Part shown: positions 18,786 through 21,238 of the stretch, in pieces
Position numbering within the stretch: the stretch's first letter is position 1
Layout: every line of letters begins with the position of its first letter
Source: [Pasteurella] mairii
GTDB taxonomy: Bacteria; Pseudomonadota; Gammaproteobacteria; Enterobacterales; Pasteurellaceae
Direction: 5' to 3'
Length of the DNA stretch: 32,000 nucleotides
NCBI GenBank assembly: GCA_900454475.1
Contig: UGSS01000002.1
Span: forward strand, 917,605 to 949,604
Position numbers and translations under genes: made by a program
Notes under the pieces: generated by a model
What the model was told of the DNA's origin: nothing
The model's input: the letters and a program-made list of their open reading frames with translations, nothing else
Database searches by the model: none

Positions 18786-18900
18786 TGAGTGATCATTGTC
18801 ACAAAAAAGAGTAAAAAAGAAGTAAATAAAATATTTACCAGACATCGGATTATTTGTGTTTTTATCAAAATTTACTTGACATTTATATAGTGAGGTTAAA

Positions 18901-19023
18901 ATGCGAAACGAAACGAAACGAAACGAAACGAAACGAAACGAAACGAAACGAAACGAAACGAAACGAAACGAAACGAAACGAAACGAAACGAAACGAAACG
19001 AAACGAAACGAAACGAAACGTAG
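18901..19023 (+). other. Putative repeat-encoded leader ORF: M(RNETK)7RNET*, 40 codons
   Basis: The ATG at 18901 is preceded by GAGG (18892..18895) with a 5-nt spacer. The ORF consists entirely of the pentanucleotide tract and, with 23 units, stops at the TAG (19021..19023) directly after the tract. Whether it is translated is unknown. Confidence 0.35.
18904..19020. repeat. Perfect pentanucleotide microsatellite, 23 full units of AAACG (equivalently GAAAC or CGAAA; GTTTC/CGTTT on the other strand)
   Basis: Counted directly: CG + (AAACG)x23 spans 18904..19020 with no interruption. It lies 57 nt upstream of the methyltransferase ATG (19078). Confidence 0.98.
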
Positions 19024-19077
19024 TTTAAAATCAATCTCTTGCCTGTCAAGCCTTTTTTTAAAAAAGGCGGTGGCATA

Positions 19078-20049
19078 ATGGCAGGTAACAAAAATCTTCA
19101 CCGCGCTAACCGTGAGAAAAATGACGAGTTTTACACTCAACTTGTCGATATTGAAAACGAATTACGCCATTACACTCAACATTTCAAAGACAAAATTATT
19201 TTTTGCAACTGTGACGATCCAGAAGAGAGTAATTTTTTCCGTTATTTTGCACTCAATTTTGAACATCTTGGCATTAAAAAACTCATTTCTACGCATTTTG
19301 ATGCAGAGCACCCTACTTATAAATTAGAAATTGACCGTGAATTAGATTTAAATGCAGATGGCAAAATTGATTTTGCCGATATTAAGCGTATTCATTTAAC
19401 GCAAAACGGCGATTTTCGTAGCCCTGAATGTGTAGAAATTCTCAAACAAGCGGATATTGTGATTACAAACCCACCTTTCTCCCTATTCCGTGAATATGTC
19501 GCACAGTTAATGGAATATGAGAAAAAATTTGTAATTGTGGGGAATCAAAATGCAATTACTTATAAAGAAACCTTTAAGCTAATTAAAGAAAATAAAATTT
19601 GGCTAGGCAATAAAAGTGGCGATATGGCATTTAAAGTGCCTGATTATTACGAAGAAAAAGCAACGCGCTATTGGCAAGATGAAACAGGGCAAAAATGGCG
19701 CAGTTTGGGAAATATTTGTTGGTTTACCAATTTAGACCACGCCAAACGCCACGAAGAATTATTGCTTTATAAAACTTATTCGCCCGAAGAATATCCTAAA
19801 TATGATAATTATGATGCGATTGAAGTCAGTAAAGTAAAAGATATTCCGATGAATTACGATGGCGCAATGGGAGTACCGATTACTTTTTTGGATAAATATA
19901 ATCCTGAACAATTTGAAATTATTGGTCAAACGCATAGTGGAGATACAAGCCAAGAAACTGATAATTTACGATTAGATATGAAAAATAGGCATCGTGGATT
20001 GATAGACGGAAAGCAATTATATGCCCGTATTTTAATTAAGCGTAAATGA
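19078..20049 (+). CDS. N6-adenine DNA methyltransferase, EcoRI-methylase-like family (gamma-type order: early DEFYT motif, later NPPF)
   Basis: 324 aa from ATG 19078 (the track ORF starts at an upstream TTG, 19039). A GGTGG SD lies 4 nt upstream. Motifs are NDEFYTQ (aa 15-21), FCNCDDP, catalytic IVITNPPFSLFREY (NPPF at 19468..19479), KENKIWLG, YPKYDNYDAIEV and GAMGVPITFLDKYNPEQFEI. The size and motif order match what I recall for M.EcoRI-type enzymes (Pfam EcoRI_methylase). No alignment was run. Confidence 0.85.
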   Translation: MAGNKNLHRANREKNDEFYTQLVDIENELRHYTQHFKDKIIFCNCDDPEESNFFRYFALNFEHLGIKKLISTHFDAEHPTYKLEIDRELDLNADGKIDFADIKRIHLTQNGDFRSPECVEILKQADIVITNPPFSLFREYVAQLMEYEKKFVIVGNQNAITYKETFKLIKENKIWLGNKSGDMAFKVPDYYEEKATRYWQDETGQKWRSLGNICWFTNLDHAKRHEELLLYKTYSPEEYPKYDNYDAIEVSKVKDIPMNYDGAMGVPITFLDKYNPEQFEIIGQTHSGDTSQETDNLRLDMKNRHRGLIDGKQLYARILIKRK

Positions 20050-20061
20050 CAAAAGGATAAA

Positions 20062-21180
20062 ATGAGTATGAAAATCGAATTAACTAAAATCAAAATCCGT
20101 GATTTGGTCGCTGATTATACCAACACCGCCGAAAACGGCGTAACAGGCTATTATGGCAAACTAGACATTCGCCCCAAATATCAGCGTGAATTTGTGTATA
20201 AAGAAGCACAACGTAATGCCGTGATTGATACGGTTCGTAAAGGTTTTCCGCTTAATGTGATGTACTGGGTAAAACGTGAAGATGGCACATTTGAAGTACT
20301 AGATGGTCAGCAACGCACCATTTCTATTTGCCAATTTGTCAAAGGCGATTTTTCGGTTGAATATCAATATTTTCATAATCTCCCCAAGGACAAACAAGAC
20401 GTATTTTTGGATTATGAATTAACCGTTTATCAATGCGAGGGAACGGATAGCGAAAAGCTAGAATGGTTTAAGACGATCAATATTGCAGGCGAAAAACTGA
20501 CCGACCAAGAGTTACGTAATGCAGTTTATGCGGGCAGTTGGCTAACCGATGCTAAACGCTATTTTTCAAAATCAGGCTGTGTAGCATCTAGCCTAGGCGA
20601 TAAATACGTCAAAGGTTCGCCTATTCGCCAAGAGTTATTGCAAACAGCATTAGAATGGATTTACTGCACCGAAAATAACACTGAAAATAAGCCACATAAA
20701 AGCATTGAAAGCTATATGGCATTGCATCAACACGATGAGCACGCCACGAAATTATGGAATTATTTTCAGTCAGTGATTAACTGGGTAAAAAATACATTTC
20801 CAACTTATCGCAAAGAGATGAAAGGCTTGGAATGGGGATTGTTTTATAATCAATTCAAAGACGCTGATTTAAACCCAACCGCACTTGAAACGGAAATCAA
20901 AACCTTAATGGAAGATGATGAAGTCAGTAAAAAAGCTGGAGTTTATGCTTATGTGCTAACACGAGATGAACGTCATTTAAATTTACGCACCTTTAGCGAT
21001 AAAGATAAACGAATTTTATTTGAACGACAAAATGGCGTTTGCTCACATTGCAAAGCACCCTTTGAGCTATCTCAAATGGAAGCAGACCATATCACACCTT
21101 GGTCGCAAGGCGGTAAAACGGATTTGAGCAATGGGCAAATGTTGTGTAAAAGTTGTAATCGTAAGAAAAGTGATCAATAG
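20062..21180 (+). CDS. DUF262 (ParB/Srx-fold, GmrSD N-terminal type) domain fused to a C-terminal HNH nuclease
   Basis: 372 aa. An AAGGA SD lies 4 nt upstream, and the gene starts 12 nt after the MTase stop. DUF262 hallmarks are RPKYQREFVY (aa 37-46) and LDGQQRTISI (DGQQR at 20302..20316). The C-terminal HNH is CSHCKAPFELSQMEADHITPWSQGGKTDLSNGQMLCKSCNRKKSD (CxxC...DH...N...CxxCN). Confidence 0.85.
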   Translation: MSMKIELTKIKIRDLVADYTNTAENGVTGYYGKLDIRPKYQREFVYKEAQRNAVIDTVRKGFPLNVMYWVKREDGTFEVLDGQQRTISICQFVKGDFSVEYQYFHNLPKDKQDVFLDYELTVYQCEGTDSEKLEWFKTINIAGEKLTDQELRNAVYAGSWLTDAKRYFSKSGCVASSLGDKYVKGSPIRQELLQTALEWIYCTENNTENKPHKSIESYMALHQHDEHATKLWNYFQSVINWVKNTFPTYRKEMKGLEWGLFYNQFKDADLNPTALETEIKTLMEDDEVSKKAGVYAYVLTRDERHLNLRTFSDKDKRILFERQNGVCSHCKAPFELSQMEADHITPWSQGGKTDLSNGQMLCKSCNRKKSDQ

Positions 21181-21197
21181 AATAAGTGGTTATAGAT

Positions 21198-21226
21198 AAA
21201 AGGGGAAATTGTATTTCCCCTTTATT
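21198..21226. terminator. Bidirectional hairpin terminator between the nuclease gene and putP
   Basis: AAAAGGGGAAAT-tgt-ATTTCCCCTTTAT has a 10-bp stem with A/T runs on both sides. It serves the convergent genes ending at 21180 (+) and 21239 (-). Confidence 0.8.
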
Positions 21227-21238
21227 AGTTGAAATGAA

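Follow-up and report, generated by a model that had tools for sequence, protein, structure and literature searches.

A repeat-bearing leader reading frame as a probable contingency switch of a Type II-like restriction–modification operon in Pasteurellaceae and Neisseria

Introduction

What is a long, perfect pentanucleotide repeat doing in front of a DNA methyltransferase (methylase) gene to which it is not fused? The question is raised by a 32,000 nt stretch of DNA from [Pasteurella] mairii (contig UGSS01000002.1, positions 917,605–949,604), the whole of which is referred to here as the window. Between sbcB and putP it carries a cassette of two genes, specifying an N6-adenine DNA methylase (gene 1) and a putative restriction endonuclease (gene 2), and directly upstream of the methylase gene stand 23 copies of CGAAA. 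An earlier note on this DNA, made from the sequence alone, had read the locus as a candidate phase-variable but non-canonical restriction–modification (R-M) or defence module, with a combination of parts that it did not recognise as a described system. Phase-variable methylases reprogramme gene expression and the barriers to phage and DNA uptake in host-adapted pathogens, and nearly all of those catalogued so far are of Type I or Type III, with intragenic repeats. A switched operon of the present kind raises a second question, namely how a cell survives when the methylase is switched off while its nuclease partner is an independent protein. The comparisons described below indicate that the repeat belongs to a separate leader open reading frame (ORF), a form of wiring that lay outside the earlier note's reading and that makes the proposed phase variation more specific. 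The leader probably, although by no means certainly, acts as a contingency switch that drives a Type II-like R-M operon in one branch of the family, found in Pasteurellaceae and Neisseria.

The repeat tract and its variation

The tract is a simple sequence repeat (SSR), (CGAAA)23, at nt 18904–19018 of the plus strand, and was found both by Tandem Repeats Finder (TRF) and by a regular-expression search, in agreement with the 23 perfect units counted originally. TRF describes it as a 5-nt repeat of 23.4 copies at nt 18904–19020 with 100% matches. Within the [P.] aerogenes/mairii group the number of CGAAA units differs between strains, with 23 in the window, 14 perfect and one imperfect unit in L001, 10 in L002 and at least 19 in L003, and many short-read assemblies break at the tract. 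Seven genomes of Glaesserella parasuis carry (GCAA)n, with n = 10, 11, 12, 14, 17, 18 and 20. In Actinobacillus seminis the tract at the same site is (CAAAA)16, so that, going by its sequence, the whole tract is homogenised to CAAAA instead of CGAAA. Other units are found in Rodentibacter rarus, (GCAAC)n, in the isolates Pebbles2, (GCAAC)9, and Macca, (ACGC)23, in a Neisseria metagenome-assembled genome (MAG), (TCGT)6-7, and in N. perflava, (CAGC)19; in these five the tract ends 56–65 nt before the methylase ATG. Nicoletella has no repeat.

Altogether, nine lineages show seven units (CGAAA, CAAAA, GCAA, GCAAC, ACGC, TCGT and CAGC), all of 4 or 5 nt, at one position, which is the pattern expected if mutability itself is under selection. 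No tetra- or pentanucleotide repeat was detected upstream in 66 more distant loci (0/66). As judged from the genomes compared, the repeat is conserved as a repeat and not as a sequence. Sequence features typical of contingency loci are present: the tract is long and perfect, its unit is not a multiple of three, it follows a leader ATG and its length is polymorphic between close strains. The phase variation first proposed from the window alone is very probably real, given the length polymorphism within species and the different units at the same position in related lineages.

The leader reading frame and its stops

In this strain, the leader ORF (nt 18901–19023, plus strand) consists of an ATG, the repeat and a TAG stop, and specifies 40 amino acids of the form M(RNETK)n. 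A Shine-Dalgarno (SD) sequence read from the window, GAGG (nt 18892–18895), stands 5 nt before its ATG, and a purine-rich SD occurs 5–8 nt before the leader ATG in all lineages for which that region was available. The repeat is followed by a double stop, TAGTTTAA (nt 19021–19028), made up of TAG (19021–19023) and TAA (19026–19028) in two different frames. This two-frame arrangement (TAGnnTAA) is present in 9/9 lineages, and both frames close 1–4 codons past the tract. The third frame continues through a leader tail, RSLKSISCLSSLFLKKAVA (nt 19019–19078), and ends at a TAA (19076–19078) that overlaps the methylase ATG, giving TAATG; in the window it is read only if the number of CGAAA units is divisible by three. 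Across the nine lineages the third frame stays open for 18–26 codons, and its stop lies at -2, -4 or +11 relative to the methylase ATG. Six SSR-bearing lineages, and Nicoletella as well, show the overlap as TAATG and one shows it as TGATG; in N. perflava a gap of 1 nt separates the stop from the methylase start, and in Pebbles2 the frame extends 11 nt into the ORF. The open frame differs relative to the methylase ATG in the last two, so the design has survived insertions and deletions. When the tails were shuffled with their dinucleotides preserved, two early stops together with one frame ending at the start were obtained in 0.2–2.6% of trials per lineage.

The leader of the window (n = 23) ends at TAG 19021–19023, which is an early-stop, or uncoupled, frame, and that of L002 (n = 10) ends at the TAA, while L001 (15 units) reads through to TAATG and is coupled. 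Only the G. parasuis strain with n = 10 is coupled among the seven, and over all repeat-bearing genomes 3/15 are coupled and 12/15 are in an early-stop frame. In Nicoletella the leader ORF is retained without a repeat and is locked in the coupled frame.

Two other ways of linking the repeat to the methylase were considered and rejected. A direct translational fusion fails on a TAG at nt 19021 in the methylase frame, and 0/3 frames reach the ORF. A repeat acting as promoter spacer is contradicted by the position of the tract, which is downstream of every candidate -10 element.

The predicted hairpin over the methylase start

A two-tier RNA hairpin is predicted on the plus strand at nt 19038–19085; its inner stem is GCCUUUUU/AAAAAGGC, and the outer one is built around a conserved CCUGUCA. 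Pairing would take up most of the methylase SD (AAGGCGGUGG) as well as the last base of the AUG and the adjoining GCAGG. The fold of the window has a minimum free energy of -17.2 to -20.9 kcal/mol (z -2.67), and the same two-tier architecture is predicted in 8/8 lineages folded (60–65 nt leading up to and spanning the methylase start). In these per-sequence folds, on which the case for the hairpin is built, the 3' arm of the inner stem is the local SD (AAGGC, GGCGGUGG, AAGGU, AAAGGGG, GGGAGAA, GGAGGUG or GGAGG) and pairs with a pyrimidine-rich 5' arm, and the outer stem joins CCUGUCA to part of the AUG and the next codons (UGGCAGG). The sequences of the arms vary by lineage and the architecture is constant; in A. 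seminis the stem is kept and the loop is different. A ribosome that terminates at the early TAG or TAA is left at least 10 nt short of the base of the hairpin. A search of Rfam with nt 18700–19200 returned no known RNA family. The inner hairpin (19053–19065) has T7A6 in the window but T8A5 in L001 and L002, a single A/T change at the loop by which neither the total length nor the leader frame is altered.

From the leader, its stops and this fold we infer that coupling acts as a switch and that the third frame is the ON state. Slipped-strand changes in the repeat would shift the leader ORF among its three frames. Two of these would end at the TAG or TAA directly behind the repeat, about 50–57 nt before the methylase start, and the methylase ribosome-binding site would stay closed, leaving the operon OFF or low. 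In the third frame, ribosomes would cross and melt the hairpin and stop on the methylase AUG, and termination–reinitiation would turn the methylase ON. The nuclease would be ON together with the methylase through their tight linkage and polarity. With a CGAAA tract, values of n that are multiples of three (such as 21 or 24) would be ON, and the n = 23 of the window would correspond to an early-stop frame.

The methylase and its nuclease partner

Gene 1 (nt 19078–20049, plus strand) specifies a protein of 323 amino acids (aa) and was correctly placed by the earlier note in the EcoRI-methylase family of N6-adenine methylases. It matches the Pfam family EcoRI_methylase (PF13651) over profile positions 1–345 of 345 (E 1.3e-146, 488.8 bits against a cut-off of 26.4) and the Type II methylase model of PADLOC-DB (MTase_II, PDLC03297) over nearly its full length (E 1.5e-129), and it carries the motifs DEFYT (aa 16–20) and the catalytic NPPF (aa 131–134). 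A sequence search of solved structures with gene 1 returned no relative. Over its full length it shares 49.4% identity with the methylase whose gene lies next to that of a 'type-2 restriction enzyme EcoRI' on the E. coli plasmid NZ_CP068038, and an identity of 49% to M.EcoRI does not fix the specificity of gene 1. When palindrome avoidance was assessed with Markov correction in the window and in 681 kb from 80 related loci, neither AATT nor GAATTC nor any other m6A-type site stood out, and the only signals were generic biases and a strong depletion of GGCC; the window holds 11 GAATTC sites against 15 expected and 480 AATT sites against 486. GGCC is scarce in the window, with 4 sites where the Markov model expects 59 (ratio 0.07), far beyond any other 4-mer palindrome. 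This suggests a long-standing HaeIII-type (GGCC) restriction pressure in the lineage that is unrelated to the m6A cassette.

Gene 2 (nt 20062–21180, plus strand) begins 12 nt past the stop of gene 1 on the same strand and specifies 372 aa from the ATG at 20062, or 370 aa from the ATG at 20068, the start annotated in relatives. The product is a putative restriction endonuclease with an N-terminal ParB/Srx-like DUF262 domain, a helical middle and a C-terminal zinc-ribbon HNH domain. The pairing of DUF262 with HNH that had been noted from motifs is borne out by Pfam (GmrSD_N/DUF262, PF03235, E 2.4e-20; HNH, PF01844, E 6e-16), and KYQREFVY, DGQQR, CSHC, DH and CKSC are all present; DGQQR, an NTP-binding motif, is invariant among 43 homologues, and cleavage may therefore require an NTP. 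Residues 3–371 align with positions 1–371 of 372 of the PADLOC-DB Type II restriction endonuclease (REase) model PDLC03418 (E 4.3e-145). An AlphaFold2 model has a predicted local distance difference test score (pLDDT) of 90.3 and resembles solved structures only domain by domain (Foldseek). Its C-terminal part matches the HNH domains of Gme, Cas9, McrA and Cap5, and its N-terminal part matches ParB/Noc CTPases besides the top match, BrxU. A sequence search of solved structures with gene 2 found nothing beyond isolated HNH domains.

The family to which gene 2 belongs is very large and conserved to an unusual degree, its members being for the most part 56–66% identical to the gene 2 protein across phyla. 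The protein collection contains at least 8000 relatives, all scored candidates having E <= 1e-5, and among the matches listed those from outside the Pasteurellaceae are mostly 62–68% identical. A survey of loci with one genome per species gave at least 408 gene 2 loci. The best 80 of these, which were examined, come from Proteobacteria, Bacteroidota, Bacillota, Actinomycetota, Spirochaetota, Patescibacteria, Chloroflexota and DPANN archaea. An EcoRI-family methylase lies upstream on the same strand in 77/80 loci (77/78 of those that are informative), usually 2–40 nt off. Two of the three loci that lack an upstream methylase are at contig ends; the third, L054, has a genuine orphan nuclease. 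The L054 gene (nt 1230–2321, from a Candidatus Moraniibacteriota MAG) is the only informative orphan, and its HNH motif is DHAKPW, not DHITPW. In six distant loci (L026, L037, L038, L047, L055 and L069) the best methylase match, which is partial in L037 and L055, ends 0.8–3.6 kb upstream of the nuclease, which implies that genes have been inserted inside the operon.

This distribution bears on whether gene 2 is instead a GmrSD-like Type IV enzyme, or an autonomous defence nuclease, for which the methylase is not the protective partner. Such a role is hinted at by the DUF262 domain with its DGQQR motif, by BrxU as the best structural neighbour, by weaker PADLOC matches to NsnA and PD-T4-2_A, and by the single orphan nuclease. 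Set against these are the full-length match to a Type II REase model, the absence of any DUF1524 match to gene 2 in the Pfam search and the methylase–nuclease (M→R) operon in 77/78 informative loci across phyla. A nuclease directed at the very DNA that its operon partner modifies would, moreover, be suicidal. The near-obligate linkage argues that the DUF262-HNH protein is a methylation-sensitive restriction partner and not a modification-dependent enzyme of the GmrSD kind, and the Type IV alternative is accordingly very remote. Going by its domains and neighbours, the gene pair is a Type II-like R-M operon of a very widespread and already catalogued family, with a nuclease whose activity is putative. 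The presence of DUF262-HNH in the R position is, across the loci surveyed, the rule for the gene 2 family and no oddity of this locus, and the idea of a non-canonical, undescribed combination is not supported: with full-length PADLOC models for both proteins, a standard defence annotator would already call the pair as RM Type II. A literature search, which left most subscription journals and REBASE outside its scope, found no account of the biochemistry or phase variation of this R-M family.

Weak points of the switch and alternative explanations

Several observations weigh against the leader switch as set out above. The z-scores of the folds range from -0.5 to -5.6 and are weak in 5/8 lineages, the accessibility test is significant in only 2–3, and RNAalifold, applied to a MAFFT alignment of the pre-start region, found no consensus structure, the reason for the last being that the inner stems are not alignable. 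The methylase has an SD-like sequence of its own, AAGGCGGTGG, 5 nt before its ATG, and the early-stop frames may only reduce the methylase and not abolish it. A conserved antisense promoter-like match overlaps the very motifs that are read here as stops and pairing arms, and for five lineages the sense -10 with the best score falls on the leader ATG. Finally, an intact free-standing nuclease is kept in 11/12 early-stop genomes, the exception being A. seminis, where it is frameshifted, and the co-silencing of the nuclease is the weakest part of the model.

The uncoupled frame is evidently not lethal, since 12/15 genomes are uncoupled and 11 of these have an intact nuclease, and the uncoupled state must also keep the nuclease harmless. 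We infer that the nuclease would be silenced along with the methylase, by polarity over 1 kb of untranslated methylase message combined with the tight M–R junction (-4 to +31 nt in lineages of the repeat branch). Alternatively, residual synthesis of the methylase would make the nuclease harmless. Two damaged operons fit a silenced state and prove nothing. In A. seminis the nuclease is split into ORFs of 117–119 aa and 257 aa and the methylase is intact, possibly leaving an orphan methylase that is still under repeat control. In one G. parasuis genome (L098, CP181443.2, nt 1996–2969) the methylase is present as two ORFs of 59 and 283 aa, alongside an undamaged nuclease gene and a leader set to an early-stop frame; either the assembly is wrong or the strain tolerates a defective methylase because its operon is not expressed.

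The methylase's own SD-like sequence also lends some support to a simpler explanation, in which the repeat is a neutral, hypermutable passenger. The two genes would then form an ordinary Type II system without a switch, and the ribosome-binding site of the methylase itself would allow constitutive expression at any tract length. Such a system would sit comfortably with the fact that most sequenced strains are in an early-stop frame with both genes intact, and that Nicoletella and all distant relatives do without the repeat. It would not account for a repeat that is kept in place across nine lineages with seven units, for a geometry of stops and overlaps that is improbable by chance, or for an SD-occluding hairpin that is predicted in every lineage folded. 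On balance a mere passenger is distinctly improbable.

Explanations at the level of transcription or RNA deserve more weight. Consensus scans of the plus strand gave only uncertain candidates for a sense promoter, either TTATCA-18-TATAGT (nt 18862–18891) or TTGACA (18877–18882)-15-TAAAAT (18898–18903). The best promoter-like match in the region is on the minus strand (nt 19022–19049), a sigma-70-like TTGACA-16-TAAACT that is directed into the repeat. Directly 3' of the repeat, an equivalent minus-strand match is present in 9/9 lineages (the window and L117, L103, L094, L105, L106, L096, L093 and L011) and scores 8–11 of 12, compared to 5–8 for the plus strand; its form is TTGACA-16-TAnnnT in most lineages and TTGATA-18-TATAAT in N. 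perflava. If the sense -10 over the leader ATG is used in the five lineages that have it, the leader start would be missing from the mRNA. Tract length might then act through interference between convergent promoters, through antisense pairing with the leader start, or through structure or processing of the 5' untranslated region (5'-UTR), with an outcome that would be graded and not three-state. The EcoRI system is itself said, from work of the Kobayashi laboratory, to be under the control of antisense RNA and reverse promoters. In hmw1A of H. influenzae there is a precedent, a transcribed repeat whose effect is exerted through 5'-UTR structure and RNase III (PMC12721329). Read as reverse complements, however, the antisense -10 gives TAGnnTAA and the -35 gives the CUGUCAA anti-start, and these hexamers could be a by-product of the double stop and anti-start; from sequence, the match may be either a consequence of such constraints or a real antisense promoter. 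Neither does a purely RNA-level effect explain why an SD and ATG precede the repeat, why an open third frame ends on the methylase ATG, or why the units are of 4 or 5 nt and none of 3 or 6 nt. Control of this kind is considered unlikely, and the leader switch is retained as the probable explanation.

Relation to known systems

The cassette resembles the EcoRI system in having a full-length PF13651 methylase with DEFYT and NPPF in a two-gene Type II operon. It differs in its nuclease, which combines DUF262 and HNH and is unrelated to R.EcoRI, a PD-(D/E)XK enzyme, and in its gene order, M→R here but R→M on the plasmid. Gene 2 shares with GmrSD, BrxU and SspE an N-terminal ParB/Srx-like DUF262 domain with DGQQR and a C-terminal His-Me finger nuclease (PMC4619093, PMC12707154). 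Unlike these enzymes it has a PF01844 HNH domain with two CxxC pairs, not DUF1524, and is about 370 aa in length as compared to about 580 aa. It also differs from GmrSD and BrxU in being placed almost always directly after a cognate methylase, which implies cleavage that is blocked by methylation and not dependent on it.

The phasevarions of Haemophilus, Neisseria and Actinobacillus are governed by phase-variable Type III mod or Type I hsdM/hsdS genes whose repeat is part of the mod or hsd ORF itself, and the restriction subunits of these systems rely on the methylase for DNA recognition (PMC5909438, PMC7383803, PMC10123105). The present locus is like them in its host-adapted Pasteurellaceae and Neisseria carriers, in its tetra- and pentanucleotide repeats, in the variation of the tract by strain and in the control of an m6A methylase. 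In contrast to phasevarions, it carries its repeat in a leader ORF distinct from the methylase gene, and its nuclease is free-standing. With a free-standing nuclease, silencing of the methylase alone should be dangerous, and with the repeat in a leader ORF, REBASE surveys for repeats inside methylase ORFs would miss the locus.

The closest regulatory precedent is lex2A/lex2B of H. influenzae, which, like the present locus, has its repeat upstream of an enzyme gene but, unlike this R-M operon, controls a glycosyltransferase. According to Griffin (2003) and Deadman (2009), lex2A is reportedly a short ORF that acts by translational linkage. A GCAA repeat lies in the upstream lex2A, and the enzyme is produced from the downstream lex2B (PMC3116884). 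In 9/9 lineages the geometry found here is lex2-like: the repeat belongs to a short ORF ahead of the enzyme gene, and just one of the three frames ends at a stop that overlaps or adjoins the next start codon. Another pasteurellacean methylase with a pentanucleotide repeat upstream of its start is that of Bibersteinia trehalosi, which differs in being Type III; its (CGCAA)n tract lies 43 bp upstream of the ATG and varies by strain, and the accompanying differences in activity were left unexplained, no mechanism being proposed (PMC4996451).

The results point to switching of a common Type II family, through a repeat in a leader ORF absent from annotations, in G. parasuis, the [P.] aerogenes/mairii group, A. 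seminis, Rodentibacter and commensal Neisseria. If so, these loci would be added to the phasome and phasevarion catalogues, and the assembly breaks as well as strain-dependent transformability would be explained. A bolder version, offered tentatively and more likely wrong than right, is that a classical two-protein Type II R-M system, its nuclease free-standing, is run as a true ON/OFF locus, in which the leader would gate the whole operon through a hairpin that locks the ribosome-binding site and would silence both genes together without post-segregational killing. The locus would then be a Type II 'phasevarion' of commensal or pathogenic Pasteurellaceae and Neisseria from pigs and humans, overlooked by ORF-based REBASE surveys, and its nuclease a methylation-blocked, possibly NTP-gated, ParB-fold relative of GmrSD.

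The islet and its surroundings

Exact protein matches assign the window to [Pasteurella] mairii, with [P.] aerogenes and Actinobacillus seminis as neighbours. The flanking genes are as originally described: sbcB, which has exonuclease I domains, has its stop at nt 18785, and putP, an SSF-family gene on the minus strand, has its stop at 21239. In eight contigs of [Pasteurella] aerogenes, including the complete genome LR134362, the spacer between them is only 92 nt and free of the cassette, which bears out the proposal of an inserted islet. Alignment to this empty junction shows that homology to the window stops after TTGTCACAA (about nt 18804) and restarts at GATAAAAGGGG (about 21193), and presence and absence between sbcB and putP give approximate limits of 18805–21192 for the islet. 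It is about 2.4 kb in size, with two same-strand ORFs downstream of the repeat, and is AT-richer than its surroundings, as had been noted, by a modest margin (36.2% G+C, compared to about 42% in the flanks).

A bidirectional terminator hairpin lies at nt 21202–21219. The element assigned earlier to the end of the cassette is real, but it does not belong to the islet: it is also present in cassette-free junctions and so is a pre-existing part of the sbcB/putP backbone. In islet-bearing strains the cassette stands between sbcB and this terminator (21202–21219). No terminator precedes the islet, so sbcB transcripts may run into the leader and the R-M operon.

Insertion sites differ between lineages. 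A. seminis (L116 and L117; nt 2856–5102) carries the cassette at the same sbcB–putP site with the same flanks. In G. parasuis it is inside a Type I R-M locus; in L097–L104 it lies between hsdR/YgjP-like genes and hsdS-hsdM, a defence island, with insertion sequence (IS) elements near in some strains. Other chromosomal sites are prfC–ROK (Pebbles2), next to polA (Macca), lacI–pgm (Nicoletella) and ruvB–recR (Neisseria MAG), and the cassette is also found on plasmids of many genera. Carriage by phages is rare, with 4 near-full-length matches in 50,697 phage records. Unrelated insertion sites and occurrence on plasmids point to a mobile unit of two genes, and on this comparative evidence the cassette is taken to be horizontally acquired.

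The sbcB ORF (nt 17304–18785) begins at a TTG and is 493 aa in length, and in sister strains the gene is called as 472 aa or 493 aa depending on the contig; the longer start overlaps the upstream gene for an EamA-family transporter. Elsewhere in the window, TRF detected imperfect tandem repeats with periods of 21–54 nt at nt 6292–6499 and 10769–10810.

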